Shown piece by piece: positions 37,501 through 63,902 of a stretch of DNA of 64,000 bases (its first letter is position 1; every line of letters starts with the position of its first letter). The DNA comes from Deltaproteobacteria bacterium (GTDB taxonomy: Bacteria; BMS3Abin14). The position numbers and the translations under genes were made by a program. The stretch covers positions 65,404 through 129,403 of the forward strand of contig JAADHJ010000006.1 of NCBI GenBank assembly GCA_013151915.1, read 5' to 3'. Below the pieces are notes generated by a model. It did not search any database. It saw only the letters and a program-made list of their open reading frames with translations, and was not told the DNA's origin.

Positions 37501-37552
37501 TCGAATATCCCCTTTTTTCTACCCACTAAATGGATATCGGGCGGTTTATGCG

Positions 37553-37597: not shown

Positions 37598-37685
37598 CAT
37601 CTTACTTTATTCAAAGGGCGTATGCCACCATTAGATATCACCTGATACCGGCCCACCCGAGGTCGGATCGGCGGGGCAAAATTCG

Positions 37686-39187: not shown

Positions 39188-39233
39188 TGATAGGGTCGCA
39201 AAAAGTCCATTGATGACTTTTTGCGAAGTCATC
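39188..39233. repeat. REP-like element family B, minimal copy (palindrome only)
   Basis: GATAGGGTCGCAAAAAGTCCATTGATGACTTTTTGCGAAGTCATC, flanked by direct CATCAAACATG repeats. Confidence 0.6.
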
Positions 39234-42758: not shown

Positions 42759-42924
42759 GGGTTCATCCTGGAAATGAGTACCTGGATGTGGACCGGATTG
42801 TGGAAAGAGCCAACTGACCGCAAAGTTAACGAATCCGCCCGGGATTGCCGCGTCGCTCTCGTCTCCCTCGATGCCCCTCGCAATGACAGCAAAATAATAA
42901 AGGTACGCATTAGCCGGACGAACC
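42759..42924. mobile_element. MITE-like element family A, copy 2 (internally deleted, 166 bp)
   Basis: Ends GGGTTCATCCTGGAAATGAGTACC ... GGTACGCATTAGCCGGACGAACC. It shares the internal CGCCCGGGATTGCCGCG and CTCGCAATGACAGCAAAATAATAAAGG with copy 1. Confidence 0.7.
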
Positions 42925-43071
42925 GATTTCACCAATATCCTATATCATGGGAAAAATCAATACATCGAATAGAAAAATACGATACATGTGGTGATTTCGC
43001 TGCACCAAAATGGGATCAGGACGTATCGGGGTTTTACCTGGAAATTGAGGAAAGAAAATCCGGATCGACTA

Positions 43072-44247
43072 TTATCTGCTGCAACCGTCTGAACAACAGT
43101 TGTCGGTCCCCGTCGGCGCTTTCCTGATGACACCCAGCCTATGAATCCATCTTTTTACCATCGTCGTCAGGGGGCGGATTGACAGTATCAGGAGGACAAC
43201 AGCTCCAGCAAATTGCAACCACCCTGGAATCACCTCCCCTGCCTGTCCTATCACCGCCTGCGGAGATATTCCTGCCAGACCGTAGATCTGATCCAGGAGC
43301 AGGCCCGCCAGAACGCTTACGGAAGCGATGACCGCCAGGTAGAGGACCGTAGCTCTTTTCCCGAGGAACCCGACAAGGACGGAAAGAGAGGCCAGGTTTG
43401 TTGCCGGACCGACCAGGAGAAAAACCAGTGCCGCGCCCGGGCTTACCCCCTTAAGCACCAGCGCCGCAGCGATGGGCGTCGAAGCGGTGGCGCAGATGTA
43501 AAGGGGGATACCTATCACGAGCATGATCAGCATGGACGACAGACCGCCGCCCAGATGTGATGAAAAAAGGTCCTCCGGAACAGCTGCGGTAATGATGCCT
43601 GCCAGCAGAAGTCCGATGAAGAACCAACCGGCAAGGTCACCCCAGAGTTCACTAAAGGAATAACGCATTCCTGTCCGAACCTTTTCGAAAAAAGAATGAT
43701 GATGACGGTGCTGCTCGGGGGGGCAGTTTTCGCCGTCGCAGCAGCCGTCCACCGGACATGCGGCATTGGCCTTTTCATCGGCAAGGGGATCTGGAGAGGC
43801 CATGAAGTTTTCGCTGATCCCCGCGATGAAAGCCGTAACGAATGCCACCAGGGGTCTGGCCACAGTCATGATGGGGTCAAGCAGAGCATAGCTGATGGCT
43901 ATGGAATCCACACCCGACTCAGGCGTTGAGATAAGAAAGGCCACCGTGGCGCCCCTGTTGGCTCCCTGTTTTCTCAGGGACGCCGCGGCCGGCAAAACAC
44001 CGCAGGAGCAAAGAGGGATGGGGATGCCGAAAAACGCAGCCTTGATAACGGGAAGAAACCGTCCCTTGCCCAGTTGTTTTGCCACGGTCTCGGGCGATAG
44101 AAACATCTTCAGCAATCCCGCGATGAGGATGCCGAACAGGACGTAAATGGCCGACGCCAGGAGGATATCCCAAGTCTCCGTGAGGACTGTCAAAAAACCG
44201 TGCAGTATGGCGAACATGAGATATCGTCTCCTTATCGAATACGGCAA
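43072..44247 (-). CDS. arsP: ArsP-family permease (DUF318) with Cys/His-rich cytoplasmic segments
   Basis: The conserved motif IPLCSCGVLP matches the ArsP TPFcSCS motif. There are 8+ TM segments, and a tail/loop with CPVDGCCDGENCPPEQHRHHH and GTDNCCSDGCSR. Confidence 0.7.
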   Translation of the reverse strand: MPYSIRRRYLMFAILHGFLTVLTETWDILLASAIYVLFGILIAGLLKMFLSPETVAKQLGKGRFLPVIKAAFFGIPIPLCSCGVLPAAASLRKQGANRGATVAFLISTPESGVDSIAISYALLDPIMTVARPLVAFVTAFIAGISENFMASPDPLADEKANAACPVDGCCDGENCPPEQHRHHHSFFEKVRTGMRYSFSELWGDLAGWFFIGLLLAGIITAAVPEDLFSSHLGGGLSSMLIMLVIGIPLYICATASTPIAAALVLKGVSPGAALVFLLVGPATNLASLSVLVGFLGKRATVLYLAVIASVSVLAGLLLDQIYGLAGISPQAVIGQAGEVIPGWLQFAGAVVLLILSIRPLTTMVKRWIHRLGVIRKAPTGTDNCCSDGCSR

Positions 44248-44256
44248 GCCCGGTGT

Positions 44257-44628
44257 TTATTCGCGAACGTGCTCCAGCGCCAGTTGGAGCATGTCCTCTA
44301 TATGTTCATCATTGAGACGGTAATATAGAATTGTGCCTTCTCTGCGGTTGGCCACCAGATTCAGTTGCCGCAAGAGCCGCAACTGGTGGCTGATGGCTGA
44401 TTCCGTGATCCCGAGGGTAGCCGCAATGTCGCACACACATATTTCTCCGGATTTGAGTGCACGCAGAATGTTAAGCCGTGTTGGATCCCCGAATGCTTTG
44501 AAGAATCGCGACAAATGCTCTACCTCGGCTGGATCCAGAGCTGACTTCCTCGCCCTCTCGATCCGGTCCTCATGGATAATCCGGCTGTCACAGCGATCTT
44601 CCCGATTGTTTATCATGGCGATCCTCAC
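44257..44628 (-). CDS. arsR: ArsR/SmtB family metalloregulator (CVC-type)
   Basis: HTH LSRFFKAFGDPTRLNILRAL and metal-binding ELCVCD-like GEICVCDIA. Confidence 0.85.
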   Translation of the reverse strand: MRIAMINNREDRCDSRIIHEDRIERARKSALDPAEVEHLSRFFKAFGDPTRLNILRALKSGEICVCDIAATLGITESAISHQLRLLRQLNLVANRREGTILYYRLNDEHIEDMLQLALEHVRE

Positions 44629-44817
44629 GGCATTTTGATATCTGTTTATATAATCATATAGTCAATAATAGGGGTTTGTCAATGCCCGCGAGGTCAACCT
44701 TTTCGCTATCTACAATTTCTATCTCTAATATTGATTCTGTCTATTTTCCATGCTATCTTCCATCCCAAGATTCTATCCGCCGATATTCCTGGTCGTCTAT
44801 TTGTAAGGAGGAACCCA

Positions 44818-45831
44818 ATGGGAAGGCTTTTTCCGCTTATCCTGGCCTTTTTCCTGGGCCTTATCCCGTCTGCCGCCCTGGCCGGGCCACAGTCCGGCAC
44901 CATCACCATGGAGTTTGACCTCACCTCCCACCAACCCGGGAAGGATGCCCAGCTCTGGATCCCCTATCCCGTGTCTGACGGGAACCAGCTGATTAAGAAA
45001 ATCAGGATAACGGGCGACTTCGCCGAATCGGCCGTATACACCGACCGTGAATACGGAACGCCCATGCTGTACGCTCGTTGGGACGGGAACGCGAAAAGCC
45101 GGAAGCTGACATTCTCCTTCACGGTGGAGCGCGAGGAAAGGCTTACAAGGGATCTGCCGGCCGGCGAGGCGCCGTGGGACCCGGCCAACTTCGCCCTGTA
45201 CCTAAAACCTACCCGGCTCGGCCCCACCGACGGCGAGATCAGGAAACTGGCTGACAGCATAACAGCGGGAAGGATGGGTGTGAGGGATCAGGCCAGGGCA
45301 ATATACGACTGGGTCAGCGAGAATATGTTCCGTGACCCGAATACCCGCGGGTGCGGGTCGGGCGACGTCGACTCCCTTCTGAACTCCCTGGGGGGCAAGT
45401 GCGCCGACATCTCTTCCGTATTCGTTGCCCTGACACGCGCGGCCGGGGTTCCCTCCCGCGAGGTGTTCGGAATACGCCTTGGAAAGGGCGGCACAACAGA
45501 CATCACCAAATGGCAGCACTGCTGGGCGGAGTACTACCTGCCGGGATACGGGTGGGTCGTCGTGGACCCTGCCGACGTCCTGAAGATGGTACTGAAGGAG
45601 AAGCTGGATGCCGGGGACGCGAAGACTGCCGAGTACCGGGAATACTTCTGGGGCGGGGTCGACCCTTACAGGGTGAAGCTCGGGGAGGGCCGGGACCTGA
45701 CACTCAACCCGCCGCAGAGCGGCGGGCCGGTGAATTATCTCATGTATCCCTACGCACAGATAGGGGGAAAAACCCTGGACTGGCTTGACCCGGATTCATT
45801 CAGATACAGGATTTCCTATACCGCCGGATAA
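44818..45831 (+). CDS. transglutaminase-like domain protein, secreted
   Basis: Signal peptide MGRLFPLILAFFLGLIPSAALA after AAGGAGGA. Transglutaminase core GKCADISSVFVALTRAAGVPSR with downstream H/D. Confidence 0.7.
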   Translation: MGRLFPLILAFFLGLIPSAALAGPQSGTITMEFDLTSHQPGKDAQLWIPYPVSDGNQLIKKIRITGDFAESAVYTDREYGTPMLYARWDGNAKSRKLTFSFTVEREERLTRDLPAGEAPWDPANFALYLKPTRLGPTDGEIRKLADSITAGRMGVRDQARAIYDWVSENMFRDPNTRGCGSGDVDSLLNSLGGKCADISSVFVALTRAAGVPSREVFGIRLGKGGTTDITKWQHCWAEYYLPGYGWVVVDPADVLKMVLKEKLDAGDAKTAEYREYFWGGVDPYRVKLGEGRDLTLNPPQSGGPVNYLMYPYAQIGGKTLDWLDPDSFRYRISYTAG

Positions 45832-45861
45832 AATATCGCGGGCTTCACATTCAGCATTTTG

Positions 45862-46395
45862 TCAACCCAGTACTTTAAGATACTCCAGCAGATCGTTCAT
45901 GTCTTCATCCGATATGTTCCACCTGGGCATGGTCCGGTCCATGGACTCTCCCGAGGGCTCGATGCCATCGCGAATAGCCTTTTTGATCCCCTCATCGGTG
46001 TATGCGGCCTCTTCTCCGTCGTCTGCCTCACCGTGATGCTTGCCTGAAATAAGCGAGGAATACCGGATGTCGCCCGGGATGTGCGTCCCCATCATCACCG
46101 GCAGGCCGCCCTTGCCGTCCGGACCATGGCAGTTGACGCAGGACCCCCCCATCATGCGGAGCCAGTGGGGCCCTCCCCGGAACCGGATTCTCTGTCCCTC
46201 GCCGTCGATTCCGAGATAGTAGATGCGCTCCCCGGCAGACGAGTATGACCCCTTGTCATAGACCCCCCCGGCCCCCCATCCTGAGAAGGAAGCCATATGC
46301 CTGCTCCCGGCGCCGTACAGACAGACCCCGGCGATTCCCAGGATCATCAGGCCGAGGCCCCACCACAGGGTCCGGCGGGATCTTTTATCGCTCAT
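45862..46395 (-). CDS. membrane-anchored mono-heme c-type cytochrome
   Basis: An N-terminal TM helix with a single CVNCH haem-binding motif. The start overlaps the SHOCT gene stop by 4 nt (ATGA). Confidence 0.65.
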   Translation of the reverse strand: MSDKRSRRTLWWGLGLMILGIAGVCLYGAGSRHMASFSGWGAGGVYDKGSYSSAGERIYYLGIDGEGQRIRFRGGPHWLRMMGGSCVNCHGPDGKGGLPVMMGTHIPGDIRYSSLISGKHHGEADDGEEAAYTDEGIKKAIRDGIEPSGESMDRTMPRWNISDEDMNDLLEYLKVLG

Positions 46396-46664
46396 CCTTC
46401 CCCCTCCAGGGTGCGCTTCCTCTGCTCGAACTCCTCGGTGTCGATCTCGCCCTTCGCGTACCGCTCCCTGAGGATCTCCATGGGATTCCGATCACGGGCC
46501 ATGGATCCGCCACCCTGCCCGGCGGCGATGCCTCCGCGTCCCGCGGTGAAATAACGGAAGATAAGTACGGCCCCCACGATAATGACGGCCCAGAAAAAGA
46601 TCATCATGATCATACCTCCCGCCCCCCACATTCCGTAGCCATGATTGCCCCATCCTCCCATCAT
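46392..46664 (-). CDS. SHOCT-domain small membrane protein
   Basis: A TM helix, then ILRERYAKGEIDTEEFEQRKRTL (SHOCT motif). An ATG at 46664 follows AAGGGAGGA. Confidence 0.7.
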   Translation of the reverse strand: MMGGWGNHGYGMWGAGGMIMMIFFWAVIIVGAVLIFRYFTAGRGGIAAGQGGGSMARDRNPMEILRERYAKGEIDTEEFEQRKRTLEGEG

Positions 46665-46863
46665 AACCCTGTCCTCCCTTGGTGCCTGTCGGGTGAACCC
46701 GATATGCAATCAAATATCCGGCGAAAAACGGATTCACATTATTGAACGCATTTCGCCCGTTTCGCAGTCCGTACAAGTATAACCGCGATTTTCCAAAATA
46801 CCATTCGAAGCCGGCTTTTCCACAAGCAAAAAAGATGGTAGGTACTGCGTGGTACGGATGGGT

Positions 46864-48873
46864 TTACCGCATCTTGAGCGTCCGCGCATTGATCGCCACG
46901 ACAACAGTGCTCAGCGACATGAGAAGGGCCCCCATGGCCGGGCTGAGGACAATGCCCTTGCCGGCAAGCACTCCTGCCGCCAGCGGGATGGCGAAGATGT
47001 TGTAGCCCGTCGCCCAGGCCAGGTTCTGGACCATCTTGCGGTATGTGGCCCTCGCCAATTCGAAGATAGCCGCCACGTCGCGGGGATCACTGCGGACCAG
47101 GACGACGTCGGCCGTCTCCACAGCAACGTCGGTGCCCGCACCGATGGCAATTCCCAGATCGGCCGTTGCCAGGGCCGGCGCGTCGTTGACGCCGTCCCCG
47201 ATCATGGCGACTTTCTGTCCATCTTCCATGAGCTTCCTGATCGTGGCCGCCTTCTGGTCGGGAAGGACTTCCGCAAAATACTCATCAAGACCCAAGGTCT
47301 TGGAAACGGCGGCAGCCACCTTACTGTGGTCTCCCGTGAGCATCACGCACTTGATCCCCATGGCGTGAAGTCGCTCCACAGCTTCCACGGACGCGGGTCT
47401 TATAACGTCGCCCAGGGCAATGGCGCCCAGGATGGTGTCCCCCTCCAGCACGAAGACCACCGTCCGGCCTTCTGAATAGTGCTCAGCGAGGGGTTCTTCG
47501 TCAAAATGAAGGCCCCTTTCCCGCAGGTAGCCCGGGCTTGCCACCATGATCTTCCGCCCTTCCACCGTGGCCGTTGCTCCCTTCCCCTTGACTGCGTAAA
47601 AATCAACGGCCGGGGGGACTATGATCTCACGGGTGGAGGCCTCGGCGACAACTCCCTGAGCAATGGGGTGCTCTGACAGGCTTTCCACCGATGCCGCGAG
47701 ACGCAGGATCTCTTCCCCGGTTATGTTCTCGGATGGAATGATCCCCCGGACCCCGAAAAGACCTTCGGTGAGAGTCCCGGTTTTATCGAAAACAACGGCG
47801 TCGATGAGCCGGGACCTCTCGAAGGCGGCCCGGTCGCGCAGCAGCAGACCGCTGGACGCCGCGAGGGAAGTGGACACGGCCACAACAAGAGGGACGGCGA
47901 GACCGAGAGCGTGAGGACACGTTATGACCATGACGGTAACCATGCGCTCCATCGCGTATGCGAAGTCCTGGCCCAGGAGCAGCCACACGATCAGGGTCAG
48001 CGATCCAACACTCAGGGCAATGACGGTGAGCCAGAAGGCGGCACGGTTGGCCAGATCCTGGCTGCGCGACCTCGTCTCCTGGGCATTCCGGACCATCGTC
48101 ACCACCTGGGCGAGAAAGGTTTCCTCGCCCACTTTTTCCACAGCCACGGTGATGGAACCCTCGTTGTTGATGGCACCGCCCACCACTCCGTCGCCCGCCT
48201 TCTTTCCTACCGGCACCGATTCACCGGTAAGCATGGATTCGTTCACCGTGGTACTTCCCTCCACCACAGTGCCATCCGTGGGGACTTTCTCACCAGGCTT
48301 GACCACGAATCGGTCCCCCTTGACCAGGGTGTCGACCGGGACGTCACTGACGGATCCGTCATCCGCGACGAGGTGGGCTTCGGAGGGCAGGAGCCGCACC
48401 AGCTCCTCCAGGGCGCGGGACGCGCCCATGACGGACCGCATCTCGATCCAGTGACCGAGCAGCATGATGTCGATTAGGGTAACCAGTTCCCAGAAAAACA
48501 CCTTTCCGGGAAGGCCGAAAACCACCGCGGCGCTGTAGCCGTACGCCGCCGATATGGCCACGGCGATAAGGGTCATCATTCCCGGCCGGCGGGCGGCGAC
48601 TTCAGTGAACAGACCCTTAAGGAACGGCCACCCGCCGAAAAAATAAACCACTGAGGCAAGCACGAACAGGACCAGGGAATCGCCGGGGAAAACGATCCGT
48701 CCCTCGATCCCGAGGAACGACTGGACCATGGGAGACAGGGCGAGGACAGGGACCGTCAGGGCGAGGCAGATCTTGAAGCGCCCCTTGAAATCGGCCACCA
48801 TGTGCTCGTGGTGCGAACTGTGCCCCTTGTGTTCGCCCTGCGCTGAATGTGCCTGCATGTTATGTTTCTCCAT
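46864..48873 (-). CDS. copB: P1B-3-type heavy-metal ATPase (CopB-like), His-rich N-terminus
   Basis: His-rich N-terminus MEKHNMQAHSAQGEHKGHSSHHEH, TM6 CPH motif (ITCPHALGLA), DKTGTLT and GDGVNDAP. Confidence 0.85.
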   Translation of the reverse strand: MEKHNMQAHSAQGEHKGHSSHHEHMVADFKGRFKICLALTVPVLALSPMVQSFLGIEGRIVFPGDSLVLFVLASVVYFFGGWPFLKGLFTEVAARRPGMMTLIAVAISAAYGYSAAVVFGLPGKVFFWELVTLIDIMLLGHWIEMRSVMGASRALEELVRLLPSEAHLVADDGSVSDVPVDTLVKGDRFVVKPGEKVPTDGTVVEGSTTVNESMLTGESVPVGKKAGDGVVGGAINNEGSITVAVEKVGEETFLAQVVTMVRNAQETRSRSQDLANRAAFWLTVIALSVGSLTLIVWLLLGQDFAYAMERMVTVMVITCPHALGLAVPLVVAVSTSLAASSGLLLRDRAAFERSRLIDAVVFDKTGTLTEGLFGVRGIIPSENITGEEILRLAASVESLSEHPIAQGVVAEASTREIIVPPAVDFYAVKGKGATATVEGRKIMVASPGYLRERGLHFDEEPLAEHYSEGRTVVFVLEGDTILGAIALGDVIRPASVEAVERLHAMGIKCVMLTGDHSKVAAAVSKTLGLDEYFAEVLPDQKAATIRKLMEDGQKVAMIGDGVNDAPALATADLGIAIGAGTDVAVETADVVLVRSDPRDVAAIFELARATYRKMVQNLAWATGYNIFAIPLAAGVLAGKGIVLSPAMGALLMSLSTVVVAINARTLKMR

Positions 48874-48888
48874 ATCCTGATATCCCCC

Positions 48889-49956
48889 TCAATCCGCTGT
48901 CTTCCTGAGATTCAGAAGGTGCCGCCTTGCAGCCAAAGCTGCCTTCGCACCTTCTCCCGAAGCTATGATAATCCTCTTTCCGAAAGCGTCGGTAACGTCC
49001 CCGGCCGCAAAGAGCCCGGGACAGGACGTTGAGCAATCGGGGCCGATGGTGATCTCCCCGTTTTCGTTGAGTTCGACAATATCCGAAACCAGATGGGAGT
49101 TAGGCTGCAAGCCGATGGCAATGAATACGCCCCCGGCCGGCAGGTATAACGTCTCCTCCCCGGCTATCTTTCTGATCGTCAAACCGGACAATGCACTCTC
49201 GCCCTTAAAATCAACTACTTTGTATCCTTCGTACATGTTGAGGTTCTCGAATCTGCATATACGAGCCACAAGCGACGGATCAGCACTTAGTTTGCAGTCG
49301 GAGATGAGATTTATATTTTTGACGACGGTTCGCACTTTCTCAACGATCTGCACGGCCGAATTACCCCCCCCGATGATAGCGACATCTTCCCCTGTCACAA
49401 AGGAAAAATCCTGGATATTGCCGTAAAAGAGTCCTTTTCTCTGGAACTCCTCCTCACCGGGAACATCCAGTTTTCTCCTCGTCATACCGGTTGAAATGAT
49501 CAGGGTTTTTGCAAAATAGATCTTAAGCTCCGATGTAGTAACGTTGAAACCACCCTGGACGGTTTCGATCTTATCCGCTTCAGCGATCAGGTGGTCTATA
49601 TAGTGTGAGTGGAGCAACTGGCGCTGAAACTTTTCAGTCAGTTCAGGTCCCGTGATGAAGTCGAAACCCATGTAGTTCTCTACTTTCGTGCTGTCTATGG
49701 CCTGACCGCCGAGATCTTTAGCCAGCAGGAAGGCATCAATTTTAAGCGTGTCCGCATAGACAGCCGCCGTGAGCCCGGCGGGTCCGCCGCCGATAATAAT
49801 GAGATCGTAGGAAGTGCGGGGGAGTTCACATACCCTCTCCGCCAGGAATTTGTCCCTGCAGCCTTCGGAGCAGAAATAAAAGATCTTGTTGTCACATTCT
49901 GTTGTAAGAGCAGTTCTTTCGTCGATATCCATCTTGCATATGGGATCTTTTTTCAC
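48889..49956 (-). CDS. YHS/TRASH-domain fused to thioredoxin-reductase-like NAD(P)/FAD oxidoreductase
   Basis: The N-terminus has ICKMDIDERTALTTECDNKIFYFCSEGCRDKF, the same module as at the CopA N-terminus. This is followed by LIIIGGGPAGLTAAVY and the TrxR-like C-terminal GD motif FAAGDV. No CxxC redox pair is present. Starts at GTG. Confidence 0.65.
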   Translation of the reverse strand: MKKDPICKMDIDERTALTTECDNKIFYFCSEGCRDKFLAERVCELPRTSYDLIIIGGGPAGLTAAVYADTLKIDAFLLAKDLGGQAIDSTKVENYMGFDFITGPELTEKFQRQLLHSHYIDHLIAEADKIETVQGGFNVTTSELKIYFAKTLIISTGMTRRKLDVPGEEEFQRKGLFYGNIQDFSFVTGEDVAIIGGGNSAVQIVEKVRTVVKNINLISDCKLSADPSLVARICRFENLNMYEGYKVVDFKGESALSGLTIRKIAGEETLYLPAGGVFIAIGLQPNSHLVSDIVELNENGEITIGPDCSTSCPGLFAAGDVTDAFGKRIIIASGEGAKAALAARRHLLNLRKTAD

Positions 49957-49996
49957 TTACTCCCCTTTCGATTTGCGCGCCCCTCCGTGGGCGCGT

Positions 49997-51118
49997 TCAT
50001 AATGTTTTGGTGGGACGTTCGCATCTGCACCAGATGCACGTGCAGTTCAGGTGGTTGCAGCTCTCGTCCTTGACCCTGTTGACATAGTTTTTCCTGGCTT
50101 TGGGAAGAAGCAGGTGCTTTATACGGGAGCGGTTGTAATGGTGCATCAGGAATGTGTTGGAATCACCTTTGGCGAGCTTCCTCGTCAGGTACCTGTAACC
50201 CGCATGGCCGAGCTTCTCATACAGGAACCTGTTTATGAGAGAGGTCTCGAGCATGGGTGCCAGTTCATTTTTCCACAGGGCGTCGTAGCTGGTTTTCTCT
50301 ATGAGGCTCCTGGCGGCAAGACAGCCTGATGCGATCGAATACCTCATCCCGAACCCCCACAGACAATCCTGAAACCCAGCTGTCTCACCGATATAAAGCT
50401 TGCCGTTGCGAACCTGCGTGTCCCGCAGGAAAAAGTTACCGAAGCCCCCGAACTTCCTCTCGTTTCTGACGTCGGCATCCATTTTCGTGTTAAAAAAACG
50501 CATCATGTTATCAAAGTACTCCTCGCTCCTTCGATAATTTCGGTAAAGGACAGTGGCCATGGTCCCATAGCCCCCGTTTACAAGAAGGTAAGCGTAACCT
50601 TTGGGAGCGATATCATCATCAAGGACCACGACCGCCGTGTCTTCCATGGATGTGTCAAAGGTGATGCCCATGGCGATCACATCGGCCCCCTTCGGGCCGA
50701 TTCCCACTATGGCCGGCCCCGAAAGGTGATCCATGCCGTGTTCGAACAGAATCTCTGTGCCCAGCGCCTGGGCCTGTTCCTTCAGGCCCGTGTCGAGGGT
50801 GCCGGACATGGGTCCCCTTTTAACGAGGTAGAAACTGGGTTTTTCCGACTTTATGACAACAGGCTCCATCCCACGGGAATGGATGACTCCTCCAAAATAG
50901 GGTTCGCAGAGAAAGTTTATTTCGACACCCATATTTTTCAGCGTTTCGGTGACGTCGACATTCGAGCTCCAGTTTTCGAGCCCCTGAAAATCACCGCTCA
51001 ACCTGTGGCCGACATCCGGGGACTTCTCAAAAATCGTCACCGGGATACCGTGACGGCGCAGGACGATGGCGGCGACGAGTCCCGCTGGACCAGCGCCGAT
51101 TATTTTCACCGTGTTCAT
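49997..51118 (-). CDS. FAD-dependent oxidoreductase (geranylgeranyl-reductase-like fold) with Cys-rich C-terminal tail
   Basis: IIGAGPAGLVAAIVL dinucleotide motif. C-terminus CNHLNCTCIWCRCERP. Good RBS GGGAGGA. Confidence 0.6.
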   Translation of the reverse strand: MNTVKIIGAGPAGLVAAIVLRRHGIPVTIFEKSPDVGHRLSGDFQGLENWSSNVDVTETLKNMGVEINFLCEPYFGGVIHSRGMEPVVIKSEKPSFYLVKRGPMSGTLDTGLKEQAQALGTEILFEHGMDHLSGPAIVGIGPKGADVIAMGITFDTSMEDTAVVVLDDDIAPKGYAYLLVNGGYGTMATVLYRNYRRSEEYFDNMMRFFNTKMDADVRNERKFGGFGNFFLRDTQVRNGKLYIGETAGFQDCLWGFGMRYSIASGCLAARSLIEKTSYDALWKNELAPMLETSLINRFLYEKLGHAGYRYLTRKLAKGDSNTFLMHHYNRSRIKHLLLPKARKNYVNRVKDESCNHLNCTCIWCRCERPTKTL

Positions 51119-51204
51119 GGTCGCTGTCCTCCCCGCGCTTCACAAGTTTTTCGCCCCCCTGCATAATATCCGTACGTCTGTCCCCATTTCAAGTGCAAAC
51201 AACT

Positions 51205-51280
51205 AACGACCAGGGGGTCTTGCATTTATCCGGCGCCGTTTCCCTCGCCCGGCAATATCCGGCAACGGCCCCTGGTCGTT
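51205..51280 (-). other. long-stem hairpin (12-bp arms AACGACCAGGGG/CCCCTGGTCGTT, ~50-nt loop) between small membrane gene and flavoprotein genes
   Basis: Read directly. The inner loop contains the repeated CCGGC / ATCCGGC strings. Confidence 0.5.
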
Positions 51281-51307
51281 GAAAGCTGGTGTATGGAAAC
51301 TGAAATC

Positions 51308-51553
51308 TCACACGATCCTGTTGTAAACAACCCCGAATGAGTAGAGCAGAACAAAGCTTATGACAGCCGCCTCCACCATCCCCCCGATGATCCCGAGAGG
51401 GCTGAGGGAAAAGATCATGTGCCACTTCATCATCATCTCCACGGCTCCTCCGTATAGCCCGAGGTTGCCCAGAATTCCGAGGAGCAGCATCACGGCCGCT
51501 GAGACGACAGCGCTCGACACGCCAAGCGCCCGGGGATCCAGTTTTGCTCTCAT
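51308..51553 (-). CDS. small two-TM membrane protein (81 aa)
   Basis: Two hydrophobic helices. Strong RBS GAGGAGG upstream; 36 nt downstream of the copA stop. Confidence 0.55.
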   Translation of the reverse strand: MRAKLDPRALGVSSAVVSAAVMLLLGILGNLGLYGGAVEMMMKWHMIFSLSPLGIIGGMVEAAVISFVLLYSFGVVYNRIV

Positions 51554-51589
51554 GTTTTTTCCTCCTCACTCTTTTTTACCTGATCCATT

Positions 51590-54319
51590 TCATATCCTGC
51601 GCCTGTACCTGCGCATCAGTAGTGAGTTTGTAACGACGGACACGGAGCTGAAGGCCATAGCCGCTCCGGCGATGATCGGACTGAGCAGAAACCCTGTGAA
51701 CGGATACAGGATGCCGGCGGCAATGGGGAGACCGAGGGCGTTGTATATAAAGGCCCAGAAAAGGTTCTGTTTGATCTTGCGCATGGCGAAGCTGGACAGA
51801 TCCATGGCCATGACCACATCCCGGATGTCGTCCTTGATAAGCACGATGTCGCCTGATTCTATAGCCACATCCGTGCCGCTGCCGATGGCGATCCCGATGT
51901 CCGCCTGGATCAGCGCGGGGGCGTCGTTGATGCCGTCCCCAACCATGGCGACCTTGAGACCATCGTCCTGGAGTTTTTTCACCTCGGCTGATTTGTCCTG
52001 GGGAAGCACCTCGCTAAGCACCCTGTTTATCCCCACCTGGGCGGCGATGGCCTTAGCGGTCCTTCTATTGTCGCCGGTGATCATTACCACCTCCTTACCC
52101 ATCTTTTGCAGAGCCCCGACAGCCGCCGCAGAGTGTTCCTTAAGGGTGTCGGCCACCGCCAGGATTCCGGCAACATCGTTGTCAACACCGACGATCATCG
52201 ACGTTTTGCCCTGCTCCTCAAGCCCGGTCATCGCCTCGTCTGCGTCCTTCAGGTCCAGACCCGCCTCGGTAAAGTAGGCCCGGTTTCCGATGACAACTTT
52301 CCGGCTGTTCACAGTGCCCTCGACACCTTTCCCGGTAATGGAGATAAAGTCCTCAGGCGGCGTCAACTCCAGACCCTTGGCAAGAGCGCCGTTCACGATC
52401 GCCTCTCCCAGAGGGTGTTCCGAGTTCTTCTCGACGGAAGCGGCAAGTTGAAGCAAAAGGTCGGAGTCCCAGTCCCCGAAGGTCCCCACATCGGTTAACT
52501 CGGGTTCCCCTTTGGTCAATGTGCCTGTCTTGTCGAACACCACCGTGTCTATTTTATGTGCTATCTGAAGCGCCTCCGCGCTCTTGATGAGGACCCCGTT
52601 CTTGGCACCCAACCCGGTGCCCACCATGACGGCGGTGGGGGTTGCCAGCCCCAGGGCGCAGGGACAGGCAATGATGAGCACAGCGATGAACACGGTCAGG
52701 GCGAAGATGAAGCTCTGGCCGGCCAGCATCCAGATGCCGAAAGCGACCAGGGCGATTACTACCACACCCGGAACGAAATAAGCCGAAATGAGATCCGCCA
52801 ACGCCTGGATAGGGGCCTTGGAGCCCTGGGCCTCTTCCACCAGGTTGATGATCTGAGCCAGGGCCGTGTCCTTGCCGACCTTGGTGGCCCTGAATCTGAA
52901 GGAGCCGGTCCTGTTCATGGTGGCCCCGACGACCTCGTCGCCCACGGTTTTTTCCACCGGGATACTCTCACCCGTGAGCATCGACTCGTCCACGGCCGAA
53001 TACCCGTCAATGATGATTCCGTCCACGGGGATCTTCTGTCCCGGTTTGACCAACACTTCATCGCCCGTGTGCACCTCCTCAACCGGGATCTCCATCTCCC
53101 GGCCGTCTCGCACGACGAGGGCGGTTTTGGCCTGGAGCCCCATCAGCGACCTGATCGCTTCGGAGGTCTTTCCCTTGGCTATGGCCTCAAGCCACTTACC
53201 CATCAGTATGAAGACAATAAGAAGCCCGGCGACCTCAAAATAAAGATTCTCTGCCGAGTAGCCGGGCTTCCCGGACCAGATGGCGACCAGTACCGCCGTA
53301 CTGTAGATCCAGGCGGCGCCGGTACCAAGGGCCACCAGTGTGTCCATGGTTGCCATCCGGGTCTTGATAACCGAGAGAATACCCCTCGTGTAGAACTGGT
53401 AGTTGACGAACAGTATGGGAGTGGCCAGGAGGAACTGCAGGATGGACTCCCACCTGGCCGGCATGTGGGGCACCGGTATGCCCACCAGGGGCCCCATGGT
53501 GAGGGTGACGAGAGGCAGGCCCAGGACAGCCGAGAAGATGAACTTGAGCTTGAGGATCTTGATCTCCCGGTCCCTCGCCTCCTTCTCCCGGTCCAGGGTC
53601 TCTTCCGTCTCCTCCAGGGGTGTGTATCCCGCGTCCCGTATCGTCTGGAAGATCTCTTCCCTGCTGATAACGGCAGGATCGAAGTCGATCTTGGCCCTCT
53701 CGTTGATGAAAAGTTCCTTGGATAGGATCCCCCGCAAGCTGTTCAGGACGCCCTGAACCGTTCCAAGGCAGTGGGGGTTGTCCATTCCTACGACCTTCAG
53801 GTCAAGGTGCCCGGCGCGCGCCTCTCTTATATGGGGTGTATAGCCTGCGTCCACGATGGCCTTTTCAAGGTCCTGGTAAGAGACGGCGGCGGGGTCGAAT
53901 CGGACCATCGCCGATTCGGCCGCGAAGTTGACGTTTGCTTCCGACATGCCGTCAAGCTTCGACAGAGCCTTTTCGATGGTCGACGCGCACGATGCGCAGT
54001 GCATGCCGGTTATTCCCATGGTGACCGTCTTTTCGGCGGGTGCCTCCGCATCACTTTTCTCCGGCAAAGGTATTTCACGGGCTTCAACTGAGACCCCCGC
54101 CTCGAGTTCCGGAGCACCATTCTCTTCCTCTGGACCCTGGACTCCCGACTCCGGACTTCCGGCTCCGGAATCCGGAGTCAGGAATTTGTCCCTGCACCCG
54201 GGGCTGCAGAAGTACCAGGTCTTACCGTCCTTCTCCCCGGAAAGGGCTGTGCTCTCATCCACCTCCATGCCGCATATCGGATCAACCACCATCTCTGAAC
54301 CCTTCTTTTCCGGTTTCAT
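51590..54319 (-). CDS. copA: Cu(I)-translocating P1B-1 ATPase with N-terminal YHS/TRASH plus HMA domains
   Basis: N-terminal [35 protein letters not shown] motif GMHCASCAS, plus a second degenerate HMA. CPC motif ([12 protein letters not shown]), [15 protein letters not shown]. Confidence 0.9.
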
Positions 54320-54434
54320 AAGCCTCTCTCCATTTCGTTTTTACCCAGCCCCCATACTCGATCATCGCACGCGGAGGGTTTCCATAACTCAGTGAAATAA
54401 TTCCGCATCATGACGTGTTCGGCAATGCGGCCCG

Positions 54435-54608
54435 TCAACCACAGCAGCCCCCGCCTTTTTTTGTGTGCTTAGCGGTGCTGTTATCGTCCCGGGCACTTGA
54501 TTCCGGATCATCTTCATGATGTGCGTGGCCGACGTTTCCGTGCCTGGGTCGGAATATCATGAATCCCAGAGCTAAAATTACCGCCAATCCTATCAGTTTC
54601 GAAACCAT
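54435..54608 (-). CDS. small membrane protein with His-rich region and C-terminal GGGCCG (57 aa)
   Basis: An ATG at 54608 follows GGAGGT. It has one TM helix, then HGNVGHAHHEDD and the terminal KKGGGCCG. It lies directly upstream of copA. Confidence 0.5.
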   Translation of the reverse strand: MVSKLIGLAVILALGFMIFRPRHGNVGHAHHEDDPESSARDDNSTAKHTKKGGGCCG

Positions 54609-54903
54609 CCTTAACCTCCATTTCTGTATCGGGTGCAAAAGAGACCCGATATCCATTTGATGCCCCTGACTTGCCCCTTGATCCGATTAAAGCGAACGAT
54701 CTGTCTGTGCCCATGCATGTCAATCTCCCTCTTGATATTATATCAGCTCTGCTCTCATGGTTAAAATATACCCTACCCCCCTAGGGTATGTAAAGGAGTT
54801 TTTTCATCCCCTTGTGCTGAAAGACTATTCCTGGACACATATCGGAACGGTTGATATCCTTGTATCCGGCATAGGCACCGGCGGCATCGAGACGGAGAAG
54901 CTG

Positions 54904-55749
54904 ATGGGAAAAACTTTGAAAACTGCAGCAGTACCCGGTGCAAAACTGGCTCATCTGCGGGAGATCCTCAGGAAGCTGGGATCAGTCGTCGTCGCCTATT
55001 CCGGAGGGGTCGACAGCACCTTTCTTATGTGGGTCGCCGCCGATGAGCTGGGGAACAGGGCCTTGGCGGTCACAGCCCGCTCGGAGACCTATCCGAAGCG
55101 TGAAGGCGAAGAAGCGGTGTCCATGGCCGAGGGGTTCGGGTTTCGCCACCGCGTCATGGAAACCTCAGAACTGGCGATCCCCAACTTCCGCCACAATCCT
55201 CCGGAGCGATGCTATTATTGCAAATCGGAGCTGTTTGCCACCATGCGCATGATCGCCGACGAGGAGGGCCTCAGACACGTGGCGGACGGGTCTACAGTAA
55301 GCGACATTGCCGACTACCGACCCGGCCGGAAGGCCGCAGAAGAGCAGAACGTGGTTTCACCCCTCATCCAGGCGAGACTGAACAAAGAAGAGGTTCGAAC
55401 CCTGTCGAAGGAACTCGGGATTCCCACCTGGAACAAACCCGCCTTCGCCTGCCTCGCCAGCCGCTTCCCCTACCATGAGGAGATAACAGAGGAGAAGCTG
55501 TCCCGGGTGGCCCTTGCGGAGGAGTACCTTCGATCTCTCGGTATCCGACAATACCGTGTCCGTCACCACGGAAACCTTGCACGCATCGAGGTCGAACCGG
55601 GGGACATCGAGGTCCTTCTGAAACAGGAGGACCTCGTTGGGCGCTTTCGTGAGCTCGGGTTTACTTACGTAACGGTAGACCTTGAGGGCTATCGACAGGG
55701 GAGCATGAACGACACGTTGACTGTTCAGTCAATGAACGAGAAGAGATGA
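54904..55749 (+). CDS. LarE-like PP-loop ATP pyrophosphatase (TIGR00268 family)
   Basis: VVAYSGGVDSTFL PP-loop and conserved C-terminal Cys (AFACLASRFPYHEE). The Met at 54904 is preferred; the ORF track begins 49 codons upstream. Confidence 0.7.
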   Translation: MGKTLKTAAVPGAKLAHLREILRKLGSVVVAYSGGVDSTFLMWVAADELGNRALAVTARSETYPKREGEEAVSMAEGFGFRHRVMETSELAIPNFRHNPPERCYYCKSELFATMRMIADEEGLRHVADGSTVSDIADYRPGRKAAEEQNVVSPLIQARLNKEEVRTLSKELGIPTWNKPAFACLASRFPYHEEITEEKLSRVALAEEYLRSLGIRQYRVRHHGNLARIEVEPGDIEVLLKQEDLVGRFRELGFTYVTVDLEGYRQGSMNDTLTVQSMNEKR

Positions 55750-55761
55750 ACTTCCGCTTAA

Positions 55762-57165
55762 TCACACTATCAGCCGATCCCACGTCCCATACTTTTCCTT
55801 AATGGTACCGCGAGGAATGCACAGCAAGATCAGCAGAACGCCGACGATTGTATTGTTCAATATTGTGCTGGTGCCGGCCCCTGCAAGCAGCCAGGGTGAA
55901 GCGATGACCCACGCACTGAATAAAACATTGATAAAACGGCCGGCCCTGATAATTTCAGCCATGGCTATCACTGCGACAGTTACAATGAGCGCGCCAAAAA
56001 TATTGTTGCTGACCGCTGCTCTACCCATCGTGCCAAGCACCACAGGCGAAAGCATGAGCCATAGGCCGAAGGCCGCGCTGAGAAGCAGCGTCCATGGCAT
56101 CGTGACTCCCCAGGACATTGCGGGAAAGTGCTCTTTAACGGGGGTCCCGTACAATGGCGTTCTTTCGTCCGTGTTCTCCAGGTTCAGCGTCCCCCCGATC
56201 CAGAATGTCCGCCACAGAGAATTTCCTTCACGCACGCTCTGCTTGAGAAACTGCCCCATCGCGACCAGCTCATCCACGGTGAACGGGATCATCAGGAGCA
56301 TGAGCAATGCGGTTATCAGACATAACGTGCACCAGTAACCCACAACAACCGGCTGCAGGATCACCAGCACGATGCTCGTGACGCCGAGCGGCACGACGAG
56401 GATGAAAAAGCCTGTCACCATCCACGGCATGGAACGCCAGCGCGTCTTGCCGCCCATCCAGGCCATGAGCATCTCCAGGGTATAGGCCACCGCGCCAAGT
56501 CCGGCATCGGAGATAGGAAATTTCCGCGACACGTCTGAAGTCAACACGTTCACAGTGCCCTGTCCAAAAAGCGGTTCCCAGATCGTGGGGATAAAACCCA
56601 ACTGGAATGCCGCGAGATAACGGGAAATCAACCAGCCGGCAAACGCGATGACGATCATCGGCGCACGCTGATGCCAGGTTGATGGATTGTAGCTCCAGCC
56701 TGGTGGAATTTCCGGGCCTGATTTGGCCATCTCCATATGATGCGCCATGCCGGGCATCGAGGGCACGAGGACTGAAAACGCAATGGCTAACGTGCCGATC
56801 AAGGTGTCGTTCGCAAACGCAGCCGGGCTTTTGGTCCAGAATACAAGGGGTGCGAACTGAAGCCATATCCCCACCAGGGCAACACTCCAGCGCCCCCAGG
56901 AATCAAATTGCGGGAACATCGCCAACAGGGCAAACAAGGCAAGCAACAGGCCACTGACCACATCGCTCCAGATCATTGCCGGTTTCACATAGCCGAAGGT
57001 AAACGGGCTGGTGATCAGCCAGAAACCAAGTCCCACGATAGTAAAGTTGGTCCATAACCACCGGCGGCGCATGTTCAGCGTCATATCCGTCATGTTTCCG
57101 TGGCTGTCCATGGAATCCATATTATGTTCACCGTGCTTCAAGGTGTGTTCGTGTTCCGATCTCAT
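55762..57165 (-). CDS. polytopic membrane protein (SPW-repeat-like / possible VKOR-like, CxxC in membrane)
   Basis: At least 10 predicted TM helices, repeated (S/T)SP(W/F) segments, and a membrane-embedded CTLC. Confidence 0.4.
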   Translation of the reverse strand: MRSEHEHTLKHGEHNMDSMDSHGNMTDMTLNMRRRWLWTNFTIVGLGFWLITSPFTFGYVKPAMIWSDVVSGLLLALFALLAMFPQFDSWGRWSVALVGIWLQFAPLVFWTKSPAAFANDTLIGTLAIAFSVLVPSMPGMAHHMEMAKSGPEIPPGWSYNPSTWHQRAPMIVIAFAGWLISRYLAAFQLGFIPTIWEPLFGQGTVNVLTSDVSRKFPISDAGLGAVAYTLEMLMAWMGGKTRWRSMPWMVTGFFILVVPLGVTSIVLVILQPVVVGYWCTLCLITALLMLLMIPFTVDELVAMGQFLKQSVREGNSLWRTFWIGGTLNLENTDERTPLYGTPVKEHFPAMSWGVTMPWTLLLSAAFGLWLMLSPVVLGTMGRAAVSNNIFGALIVTVAVIAMAEIIRAGRFINVLFSAWVIASPWLLAGAGTSTILNNTIVGVLLILLCIPRGTIKEKYGTWDRLIV

Positions 57166-59980: not shown

Positions 59981-60060
59981 ATTCAGCGTTGATGACTTCG
60001 CAAAAAGTCCATCCATGGCTTTTTACTCCACGGAATAACGAAAAATGTCATTTTCACTTA
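59981..60060. repeat. REP/MITE-like element family B, copy 4 (truncated)
   Basis: GATGACTTCGCAAAAAGTCCATCCATGGCTTTTTACTCCACGGAATAACGAAAAATGTCATTTTCAC. It provides the last codons and the stop of the gene at 60054-60452. Confidence 0.7.
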
Positions 60061-60452
60061 CCGGACTCAGGGGAACTTTCCGCGTGCCACTGAGCCGCCG
60101 TGAATTTCCTGAGATCTTCAAAGTACCGTGAATTGGGATCAGCGCCCGCAGTGTGCCCTTTCATGACATCGAACCCGTGCCGGGAGAGCACCCAACCAAC
60201 CGCATGGATGGCCTCGTGGCGGGAAAGGCCGTCAGCCACCAGGCGCCGGAGCGTCCCAGCCACGGGAATCTCGTCGCCCATTGCCGTCTGGGTTTCCACC
60301 ATCGCATGGATCTGGGCATGAAGAAGAACATTCGGCAGGTTCGCCTCGCCGGCCTCGCAGTACTGAAGCACCGCGTTCACCCGCTCGGGCTCATCAGCTT
60401 TAAGCCACATCTCTGATTCAGGTTCGATCTCAGGATCGTAGTCGTGGATCAT
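60054..60452 (-). CDS. hypothetical protein (132 aa)
   Basis: An ATG at 60452 follows GGAGGAAAGGGGAG. No recognisable motif. Confidence 0.45.
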   Translation of the reverse strand: MIHDYDPEIEPESEMWLKADEPERVNAVLQYCEAGEANLPNVLLHAQIHAMVETQTAMGDEIPVAGTLRRLVADGLSRHEAIHAVGWVLSRHGFDVMKGHTAGADPNSRYFEDLRKFTAAQWHAESSPESGK

Positions 60453-60679
60453 TTCCACTCCCCTTTCCTCCTTGGTTCCTATTCGAATCGCCCCGGCAAA
60501 CTCAGCCCCCCCGGCTCTGCCGTGGGACCCAAGGAGTTTGACCATACCGGGCGTAGATGAAAGCCTCCCGTTTGTGAACCGCTCAAAGCTTTCAGGAGAG
60601 GAGACTTTCGTTTAACGATGTAAGAAGTTTAAGCCATACGGTATGGGACTGCAAGTATCATAATTGTTTGGGTTCATCC

Positions 60680-60881
60680 GGTTAATGCGTACCTTTATTA
60701 TTTTGCTGTCATTGCGAGGAGCATCGAGTAAGACGAGAGTGACGCGGCAATCTCATGCGGAGCTGAAAAGATCGTCACGGTGCCCTTCGGTCGCCCACGG
60801 GATCGCTTCGCATAGTTTCAGCTCGCGATGACGAATGGTGGGATATGGTCTTCATCCGGGTACGCATTTCCAGGATGACCC
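60680..60881. mobile_element. MITE-like element family A, copy 3 (inverted orientation, 202 bp)
   Basis: Ends GGGTTCATCCGGTTAATGCGTACC ... GGTACGCATTTCCAGGATGACCC. Flanks ATTGTTT / TATTCTTT. Confidence 0.7.
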
Positions 60882-61019
60882 TATTCTTTCACCACCTTTT
60901 GAACTTGACCTTCCCGACCCGGTTCCCCTAAAATACCCTTAGCTACTTATTGACGAAGGGAAACCGGCGGTTTATCTACACTCAGATTTGCCGAAAAACG
61001 ATAGTAAGGAGGTAGAGAA

Positions 61020-62321
61020 ATGGCAGGCAATAATGAAAAAGTCGTCGTTTCAACTTACACAAACGGCATTCTGGACCCCGACGAGCCGATGCTAGGTCCG
61101 GTAAAGGATGGTGGTACCATTGAGGCAAACACAATGCCTGGTTGTTGGGGGCCGATGATAACCCCTCACCTCAGGGGTGGTCATGAGGTAACTCGGCCGG
61201 TTTATGTGGAAAATGCAGAACCGGGGGATGCTCTCGCCATCAGAATCCGGGAGATAAAAGTCACATCCGCCGCCACAGCCTCCGGGCAGGATCGTATGGT
61301 TGATGGACATTTCCTTGGTGATCCATATGTGGCTAAGAAATGTCCCGGGTGCGATACCATGCATCCTGAGACAACGATAGAGGGAATCGGCCAAAATGCA
61401 GTACGCTGTTCCAATTGCGGCACCGTAATAACGGCCTTTCAGTTCGAGAATGGCTATACTGTCGTTTTCAACGAGGAGAGATCTCTCGGGGTGACCGTGG
61501 ATAAAGAAACAGCGGAGCGAATTGCCCGCAATGCCAGGAATTACGCCCAGCTTTCGGGAAATTGCACGCAGCACTCAGCCCTGCTCTTTGCTCCTCACGA
61601 CCTCAGCGGAGTCATATCCCGGATGAGACCCTTCATGGGTCAGCTCGGAACAACCCCTGCCGTGAAAATGCCGGATTCTCACAATGCCGGCGATTTCGGG
61701 GTGTTTCTTATTGGTGCGCCCCATGATTATGCAATTACCGATGAGCAACTCGAACTGCGCACCGACGGACACATGGATATCGACGCGGTCCGGCCCGGAG
61801 CGATACTGGTGGCTCCTGTGAAGGTGCCTGGCGCAGGCGTATATATGGGCGACATGCACGCGCTCCAGGGAGACGGAGAAATTGCCGGACACACTATGGA
61901 TGTGTCCGGGGTCGTGACGGTGCAGGTCGAGGTGGTGAAGGGACGGGAGCTTCGGGGACCGGTACTTTTTCCCCTTGTCGAAGATCTCCCTTACCTGGCT
62001 ATGCCTTTTAACTCCGAGGAAGGAGCAAAAGCCGAAATACTGGCAAAACAATGGGACCTTCCAAGACTGGAGAAATCCGCTCCTATCTCTGTCGTTGGAA
62101 CGGGAGCTGATTTAAATAAGGCTACGGAAAACGGGTTGCAGCGAGCTGCCGATATCTTAGGGATGAGCGTTCCGGAAGTGAAGAACCGCGCCACAATTAC
62201 CGGAGCTATTGAAATCGGCCGTCTACCGGGAGTTGTTCAGGTTACCTTCCTGGCGCCACTGGAGAATTTGAAAAGCGCCGGTCTCCTTCCCTTTGTAAGT
62301 GAGCAATATGGAATTGGTTAG
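61020..62321 (+). CDS. acetamidase/formamidase (FmdA_AmdA) family protein
   Basis: TRPVYVENAEPGDALAIRI and DGHMD..., 433 aa. RBS AAGGAGG. Confidence 0.7.
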   Translation: MAGNNEKVVVSTYTNGILDPDEPMLGPVKDGGTIEANTMPGCWGPMITPHLRGGHEVTRPVYVENAEPGDALAIRIREIKVTSAATASGQDRMVDGHFLGDPYVAKKCPGCDTMHPETTIEGIGQNAVRCSNCGTVITAFQFENGYTVVFNEERSLGVTVDKETAERIARNARNYAQLSGNCTQHSALLFAPHDLSGVISRMRPFMGQLGTTPAVKMPDSHNAGDFGVFLIGAPHDYAITDEQLELRTDGHMDIDAVRPGAILVAPVKVPGAGVYMGDMHALQGDGEIAGHTMDVSGVVTVQVEVVKGRELRGPVLFPLVEDLPYLAMPFNSEEGAKAEILAKQWDLPRLEKSAPISVVGTGADLNKATENGLQRAADILGMSVPEVKNRATITGAIEIGRLPGVVQVTFLAPLENLKSAGLLPFVSEQYGIG

Positions 62322-62359
62322 GGGAGAAGAGCCGGAGGGGCACTAAACTCCTTATCTCA

Positions 62360-62494
62360 CCACCCGTTCGTCACGCCTGCGGCAAGCTGTTCCTTAACCA
62401 AAGATTTCAGGTGTCCTCCGTATCCTTCCATAACGTGCCTTGTAGCGGTGAGCCGCTCCTTAACTCAATAAGGTACGCATTAACCGGAGGAACC
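62360..62494. mobile_element. MITE family A partial copy / solo terminal repeat
   Basis: GGTACGCATTAACCGGAGGAACC at 62472-62494 with upstream CCCGTTCGTCACGCCTGCGG. No matching left TIR. Confidence 0.5.
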
Positions 62495-62498
62495 AATT

Positions 62499-63902
62499 TT
62501 ATACGCAGCACGAGATACCCGAGATGTCCCGGGTGAACGAGACGGCTGCGAGTTTTATAGATTCGGCCATGCTCGGGAACACGGGCATGGACTCGATGAC
62601 GTCGTCGATGGTGTTTTTGTTCCTGATCAGCGTCATGGCCACGGAAGCCAACTCCGAAGACTGATTCGACAGGAAGTGTACGCCGCGGATTCGCCTCGTC
62701 TTCGGGTTTATCACCATCCTGATCAACCCCTCGGTGCGTCCCGTGATGATGGCCTTGGGGATTTTTTCGAAAGAAACGGTCCTGCAGGAGCAGATGCCTT
62801 CACGTTCCATCAGCTCTTCCTCCGTGAGGCCGACGCCTGAAAGCTGCGGGTCGGTGAATACCGTGTATGGGACAGTGTCATAGTCTATGCCGTGTTCCGT
62901 CCCGCTCAGGGCGTTTTGGGCGCCCAGCGTCCCCTCGCGGCCGGCGGTGGTCTCGAGGCGCCGCGGCAGATCCACGACGTCACCGGCGGCGAAGATATGG
63001 GGCTGCGAAGTCTGCATGAACCCGTTGACGGTAATAGCCCCCTTTCCATTGGTCTTTACACCGGCAATGTCGAGGGCAAGGCCGTTTGTGTTCGGATCCT
63101 TTCCAGCCGCCAGCAGGATCTCGTCACCGCTCACGACCACTTCCTTGCCGCCTGAAAGATAGGAAAGGTGTTTCCTGCCGTTTTTCACCCACGCCTTCCG
63201 GTATTCGACACCCAGGGTGATGGAGATCCCTTCGCCTTCGAGGAGTTCACGGAGCCTGACCGCCAGCTCCGGCTCCGTTCCCCTGTATATCGACCTTGAA
63301 CGCCTGAGCAGGGTCACCCGGGTTCCGAACCTGGAGTACATCTGGGAAAACTCCAGGCCCACCGCCCCGGCGCCGATCACGATCATGTCCTTTGGTAGGC
63401 GCCTTAACTTCAGGGCCTCGATATGGGTCAGGAAGCCTGTGTCTTCAATCCCCTCGATGTCAGGAACCCTGGCTGTGGACCCGGTGGCGACGAGGAACTT
63501 CTCCCCCTCGACAATATTTCCGTTGACCTCAACCTGATTGGGCGAGACGAATTTCCCCTTTCCATCAAGAAACGTGATGTTCTCAAGCCCTTTGAGTACA
63601 TGCTCGTACTTTTCACCGCGCATTTCTTCCACCATATCCAGTTCGGCCCGGACCACGGTGGGGAAATCGAACGTATCTCTGGACAGCCCTATCCCGGGGA
63701 CGCCATGATGATCCACTGCATGGAGGACCTCTCCGGCATACAGCAGCGCCTTGGAGGGGACGCAACCGACGTTCACACAGGTCCCTCCCAGGGGTAGTCC
63801 CGTGTTGATCATGGCCGTCCCGGCACCAAGATCATTGGCCTTTATGGCAGCCCCGAAGCCGCCGGCCCCGCCGCCGATAATGACCAGATCATACTTGTCC
63901 AT
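62499..63902 (-). CDS. merA: mercuric-reductase-like class I pyridine nucleotide-disulfide oxidoreductase (no N-terminal HMA domain)
   Basis: FAD motif VIIGGGAGG, redox-active GGTCVNVGCVPSK, and a C-terminal IKLAAVSFTRDISGISCCV carrying the MerA-type vicinal Cys pair. Confidence 0.6.
   Translation of the reverse strand: MDKYDLVIIGGGAGGFGAAIKANDLGAGTAMINTGLPLGGTCVNVGCVPSKALLYAGEVLHAVDHHGVPGIGLSRDTFDFPTVVRAELDMVEEMRGEKYEHVLKGLENITFLDGKGKFVSPNQVEVNGNIVEGEKFLVATGSTARVPDIEGIEDTGFLTHIEALKLRRLPKDMIVIGAGAVGLEFSQMYSRFGTRVTLLRRSRSIYRGTEPELAVRLRELLEGEGISITLGVEYRKAWVKNGRKHLSYLSGGKEVVVSGDEILLAAGKDPNTNGLALDIAGVKTNGKGAITVNGFMQTSQPHIFAAGDVVDLPRRLETTAGREGTLGAQNALSGTEHGIDYDTVPYTVFTDPQLSGVGLTEEELMEREGICSCRTVSFEKIPKAIITGRTEGLIRMVINPKTRRIRGVHFLSNQSSELASVAMTLIRNKNTIDDVIESMPVFPSMAESIKLAAVSFTRDISGISCCV

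Follow-up and report, generated by a model that had tools for sequence, protein, structure and literature searches.

ISL3-derived miniature elements on either side of an acetamidase/formamidase-family gene next to merA

The locus described here comprises an acetamidase/formamidase-family gene (fmdA) with a MITE on each side, followed by merA. It forms part of a 64-kb stretch of DNA, referred to as the window, the rest of which consists of ordinary chromosome (der, ruvAB and yebC) and a metal-resistance region. The interval 60671–62494, which extends from the outer end of one MITE to the outer end of the other, is termed the block. The strand of a MITE is the direction that the transposase gene would take in autonomous relatives, and IRR is the end of the transposase-3' type, IRL being the other end. 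The features of the locus are as follows.

60671–60881, minus strand: MITE copy 3, complete, 211 bp, with IRR at 60671–60693 and IRL at 60859–60881
60905–60934, plus strand: promoter-like candidate TTGACC-18-TAAAAT (10/12 match), downstream of the MITE and ahead of the conserved leader
60952–61019, plus strand: leader and ribosome-binding site, common to the orthologues and the furthest upstream reach of their homology
61020–62321, plus strand: acetamidase/formamidase-family gene, 433 amino acids (Pfam FmdA_AmdA, 175 bits)
62322–62342, no strand: 21-nt spacer separating the stop codon from the truncated MITE, containing GGCTCTTC on the minus strand
about 62343–62494, plus strand: truncated MITE of another subfamily ('copy 4'), with IRR at 62472–62494 (22/23) and no inner IRL
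62499–63902, minus strand: merA, mercury(II) reductase (TIGR02053, 494 bits against a cut-off of 454)

The gene has exactly the boundaries given in a first-pass annotation of this DNA, which named it formamidase. That name is unproven, because the match to the NCBIfam formamidase equivalog (NF045496) scores 40 bits against a cut-off of 500; it covers residues 249–308 only, and solved structures of the acetamidase/formamidase family match residues 247–349 only. From its sequence, the product is classified as an acetamidase/formamidase-family protein of unspecified substrate. Promoter-like sites of the kind found at 60905–60934 are no more numerous in the region than in shuffled sequences. The same is true of sites such as TTAACC-17-TATGAT at 60657–60685 (minus strand), which spans the junction between the end of copy 3 and its flank and faces a divergent gene of 132 amino acids. 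The spacer sequence GGCTCTTC (62326–62333, minus strand) was considered as a second ISL3-like end facing the gene and was rejected, as the match extends over 8–12 nt only and the frequency of the 8-mer is not above that of shuffles. Rfam gave no match at gathering scores in the whole window and one chance-level match at E ≤ 1 in 60400–62600, and a tRNA gene or integration site was rejected, as no tRNA genes were found. A structured RNA in copy 3 was also rejected, the fold being the pairing of its two ends only (z = −2.5).

Copies of the element were mapped by repeat finding, alignment and a Hamming scan. With up to three mismatches allowed, the 24-mer GGGTTCATCCGGTTAATGCGTACC occurs at four sites in the window and at none in 100 shuffles. 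It is exact at 60670–60693 (plus strand) and 5425–5448 (minus strand), and carries two mismatches at 62472–62495 and three at 42902–42925 (both minus strand). Three elements in the window, of 427, 165 and 211 bp, are complete with two inverted ends. In addition to copies 3 and 4, the following elements were located.

5021–5447, plus strand: MITE copy 1, complete, 427 bp, with two inverted ends
42760–42924, plus strand: MITE copy 2, complete, 165 bp, with two inverted ends
2990–3122, no strand: degenerate relative of the copy-4 subfamily, recognized by alignment

Copy 1 is flanked by CATTTTTT and CATGTTTT, an 8-bp target duplication with a 7/8 match. The octamers flanking copy 2 match at 2/8 positions, the duplication not being preserved, and those flanking copy 3 (ATTGTTTG and TATTCTTT) match at 3/8 positions, or at 6/8 with a 1-nt shift. 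That neither of these two full copies, out of three, has a clean duplication may be a sign of recombination between copies. The interiors of copies 2 and 3 are 90% identical across 91 nt. The first-pass annotation had placed copy 3 at 60680–60881; the end is correct, and the start lies too far in, the complete element beginning at 60671.

Copy 4 has only 25–29 bp (62470–62498) in common with copies 1–3. Two of its stretches, 62426–62495 and 62343–62383, align to a 385-bp MITE of the related metagenome contig L138 (2865–3250), where it separates merP from merA, and an inner terminal repeat of about 22 nt, for which the Hamming scan and alignment were used, is absent. Copy 4 thus represents a different subfamily in truncated form, and not, as had been proposed, a partial copy of the MITE represented by copies 1–3. 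Two MITEs do bracket the gene in inverted orientation with the same type of end facing outward, but they represent two subfamilies. In all, at least three subfamilies with unrelated interiors can be distinguished. The elements are short and non-coding, have inverted ends that match those of an insertion sequence and occur in several copies (three complete, one truncated and one degenerate); their description as MITE-like and non-autonomous is borne out, and no transposase, by ISL3 or other similarity, is encoded within the 64-kb window.

Other repeats are also present in the window. A second family with the hairpin core AAAAAGTCCATCCATGGCTTTTT occurs at 13483–13582, 20068–20167, 20210–20247, 39196–39233 and 59989–60035, as well as in metagenome loci L035, L067 and L074; one of its copies lies approximately 640 bp to the left of copy 3, two intergenic gaps away. 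Intergenic tandem arrays with a 7-nt period (GTCCAGR-like) are located at 2140–2198, 25279–25337, 32207–32314 and 54130–54186, and such arrays adjoin MITEs in the relatives L118, L138 and L001.

A degenerate version of the repeat matched at least 120 loci when metagenome contigs were scanned, with many of the matches at contig ends. Among the matches listed, inverted repeat pairs lie 1,301–1,336 bp apart in at least six loci. In the three loci examined (L039, L031 and L018), the repeats enclose one open reading frame of 401–422 amino acids that matches Pfam DDE_Tnp_ISL3 at 249–259 bits, together with the ISL3 helix-turn-helix and zinc-ribbon domains. The terminal repeat is thus the end of an ISL3-family insertion sequence, and the autonomous partner that had been suggested exists as a family, in the form of ~1.3-kb ISL3-family elements with the same ends in metagenomes. 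ISL3-family insertion sequences measure about 1.2–1.5 kb, with terminal inverted repeats of 15–39 bp (ISfinder); the autonomous relatives, with repeats of at least 23 bp, fit this size.

The repeat on the transposase-3' side, which is the end described earlier as the outer TIR, contains the last six codons of the transposase (...G-Y-S-L-T-G) and the stop codon. This overlap probably explains why the 23-mer is near-invariant in unrelated MAGs of distant bacteria. Solitary 23-mers in distant MAGs had suggested a conserved upstream regulatory motif, a candidate that was rejected once the 23-mer was recognized as the ISL3 end overlapping the transposase stop. In the collected loci, the flanking octamers match at 7/8 positions or better in 16 of 51 repeat pairs, compared with 1.7% in a null of randomly paired flanks, and match fully in L099, L085, L098 and others. 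These matches define the element termini as GGTTC...GAACC (GGTTCATCC...GGATGAACC) and show that an 8-bp target duplication, usually A/T-rich, is the rule for these ISL3-type elements. In locus L001, which belongs to a 'complete' MAG chromosome, positions 1707–1806 are a run of exactly 100 N that lies 23 nt inside the repeat; deliberate masking was rejected as its origin, since the exact length of 100 points to a scaffold gap at the repeat.

To the right of the block, the merA relatives L135, L137 and L138 show 88–90% nucleotide identity and keep the mer operon together with its downstream genes. Their alignment with the window ends at the merA stop codon (62500), 4 nt short of the outer end of copy 4, and resumes at an ABC-transporter block (window 35947–39016). 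The two points are 23.5 kb apart in the window, compared with approximately 4.9 kb in the relatives; the position of a transglutaminase-like gene has also changed. Nothing downstream of merA in the relatives corresponds to the left flank of the block, and the nearest homologue of the 132-amino-acid neighbour on the left is only 65% identical. Judged from the synteny break, the missing counterpart of the left flank and the lack of a close homologue of this neighbour, the locus lies in a region of rapid turnover.

The position of the break is what would be expected if MITEs marked rearrangement junctions, the gene segment having been joined to DNA downstream of merA through MITE/IS recombination or deletion. 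Such an event would have cost copy 4 its inner end and disrupted the target duplications, and it would accommodate the termination of merA homology so close to the repeat, the difference in length, the relocated gene, the missing inner repeat of copy 4 and the absence of clean duplications around copies 2 and 3. However, flank swapping by inversion between copies was considered and rejected, as the octamers match in no swapped combination. The ~25 bp that the copies have in common is too little for efficient homologous recombination, and the left side, with its poorly matched 132-amino-acid gene, offers no ancestral arrangement. We regard this origin as credible but unlikely.

The metal-resistance region (43072–57165 and 62499–63902) encodes ArsR, an ArsP-type permease, two heavy-metal P-type ATPases with YHS/HMA domains, a YHS-domain flavoprotein, a VKOR/SPW protein and merA. 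In the closest relatives, the surrounding stretch 39017–62499 is either unmatched or rearranged. Upstream of merA in the relatives, a merP-like gene (L138, 2513–2830; L135, 7029–7349) contains an in-frame TGA that replaces the expected first cysteine of the GMTCxxC metal-binding motif (GMT-TGA-GLC), and gene callers split the gene in two. The TGA may be a selenocysteine codon or the mark of a pseudogene. The matching gene lies just past the end of the window.

The amidase-family gene was found in about eight other contigs. Five of these (L127, L130, L132, L133 and L118) encode proteins with 90–93% amino-acid identity to the window gene, with dS values of 0.31–0.39 for the four that are full-length; identity is 85–87% for L143 and L144, and 84% for L139 and L142. 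The first seven orthologues occupy seven different neighbourhoods, and in every pair the nucleotide homology around the gene ends 13–68 nt before the start codon and 0–4 nt after the stop codon. These limits fall well inside the MITE boundaries and not at the repeat ends, and no ISL3 ends adjoining the gene were found in the orthologue contigs. A MITE of the copy-1 subfamily is present in L118, 900 bp upstream of the gene; given this distance, its opposite orientation and an intervening gene, it represents a separate insertion. An integron cassette was rejected as an explanation for these borders, as the homology stops 0–4 nt past the stop codon and there is no common 3' recombination site.

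The distant orthologues L139 and L142 (dS of about 1.2) keep common flanking genes. At dS values of 0.2–0.4, the gene neighbourhood differs in each relative, with homology cut at the borders of the gene. The merA relatives, at comparable dS, stay syntenic with each other; these are not necessarily the same organisms as those of the fmdA contigs. The shift of the gene between close relatives implies that some mobilising process acts on the gene or its surroundings. The gene could be a single-gene mobile unit in this clade, aided by flanking repeats such as the ISL3 MITE pair in the window and a direct repeat pair in L144, and 60671–62494 would then be a working ISL3 MITE composite; we consider this quite unlikely. 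The L144 repeat is 58 nt long with 79% identity between its two copies (4453–4510 and 6795–6852), which lie approximately 490 bp to each side of the gene, and it is absent from all other collected loci.

If the block were a genuine composite transposon of the non-autonomous kind, both outer ISL3 ends would have been used together by a transposase supplied in trans, and the 1.8 kb would have been inserted as a unit. The outer ends (60671–60693 and 62472–62494) are inverted and outward-facing, and match the repeat at 23/23 and 22/23 positions; as intact inverted repeats, they could in principle be acted on in this way. The gene is therefore bracketed as in a composite transposon, with the caveat that the bracketing elements come from different subfamilies and that one of them is truncated. 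The existence of autonomous ISL3 relatives and the positional instability of the gene also fit, as does the ability of MITE pairs in another family, the TIMEs, to mobilise intervening DNA (PMC4133298).

An 8-bp duplication at the outer edges of the block is, however, not present: the flanks ATTGTTTG and AATTTTAT match at 4/8 positions, for which the probability of a match at least as good is 0.39 under a null of random pairs. Exact-repeat scans gave no second copy of the block in plasmids, viral contigs or genomes nor, among the matches listed, in metagenomes, a weak negative. In the seven other contexts, homology with the orthologues ends well inside the block, at −13 to −68 and 0 to +4 relative to the gene, and the left flank lacks a counterpart downstream of merA in the relatives. 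Movement of the 60671–62494 block as a unit is not supported, and we judge a composite transposon to be very unlikely.

Such a cargo unit had been the proposal of the first-pass annotation, which looked to target-site duplications at the outer edges and to the presence or absence of the block in relatives as evidence; the duplications are missing, and homology with the relatives stops at the gene's own borders. A syntenic, MITE-free locus in the relatives, which had been named as contrary evidence, was not found either, as the gene is not syntenic. The associated suggestion that the gene is prone to excision finds little encouragement, because copies 3 and 4 are inverted and have only about 25 bp in common, so that deletion by recombination between them would be unlikely.

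The proximity of two elements can also be compared with chance. Simulations placed four to five elements randomly among approximately 27 intergenic gaps, as defined by a crude gene call. Two elements fell in neighbouring gaps in 30–52% of the simulations, and did so in inverted orientation in 17–30%. Two elements in neighbouring gaps are thus not unusual.

It is hardly credible that the contig was mis-joined at a repeat and that the fmdA–merA adjacency is unreal: the source is a MAG contig (150,597 bp), many metagenome contigs among the matches listed end at the repeat and a related MAG has a 100-N gap 23 nt inside it, but a join inside a common MITE would leave a complete MITE, whereas copy 4 is truncated with a unique interior, and the similar dS values versus relatives of fmdA (0.31–0.39) and merA (0.37–0.42) fit one genome.

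We therefore return to the arrangement itself, which probably arose by the separate insertion of ISL3-derived MITEs on either side of a chromosomal amidase-family gene, with later truncation of the downstream copy. In a MITE-rich genome and a fast-changing metal-resistance region, non-autonomous derivatives of an ISL3-family element would have inserted independently in both intergenic regions around the gene, and the downstream copy, a member of another subfamily, would afterwards have lost its inner end. Any present-day mobilisation would depend on an ISL3 transposase encoded at another site of the genome. If the insertions were separate, the composite-transposon look is a by-product of MITE density; as nothing shows that the MITEs and the gene moved together, the arrangement can be regarded as an ordinary feature of a repeat-rich genome. 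Several observations count against separate insertion. The synteny break 4 nt from a MITE end is explained equally well by element-associated rearrangement and by coincidence, the outer ends are near-perfect, the gene changes position between relatives and two of the three full copies are without a clean duplication.

The analysis ties a MITE family of an uncultured deltaproteobacterial MAG to its insertion-sequence family, ISL3, and carries the caution that two nearby repeats in a repeat-rich genome do not make a composite transposon. Its significance beyond annotation is small; what stands out is how unusually unstable the amidase-family gene is in its position.

The autonomous relatives resemble the ISL3-family insertion sequences named in the Pfam zinc-ribbon model (ISL3, IS1096, IS1165 and IS204) in having a single DDE_Tnp_ISL3 transposase with a helix-turn-helix and a zinc ribbon, a length of ~1.3 kb, repeats of at least 23 bp and 8-bp A/T-rich duplications, whereas the copies in the window are without a transposase. 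A terminal GGCTCTT is common in the ISL3 family; the repeats described here begin with GGTTCATCC, and GGCTCTT was seen only in the L118 MITE.

The arrangement of the locus, with two miniature elements bracketing a cargo and resembling a composite transposon driven by insertion sequences, is shared with mosaic non-autonomous transposons composed of two TIMEs, which are Tn3-derived miniature elements (Szuplewska et al. 2014, PMC4133298). The two-TIME structures were captured while transposing, with 5–6-bp duplications (PMC4133298), whereas the present elements belong to the ISL3 family, show no duplication around the block, include one truncated member and are known from sequence alone.

With bacterial MITEs in general, the copies in the window share a length of 165–427 bp, a non-coding and intergenic nature, ends that match an insertion sequence, the occurrence of several copies per 64 kb and, in one case, a target duplication. 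They differ in that their interiors belong to at least three unrelated subfamilies, with only the terminal repeats in common.
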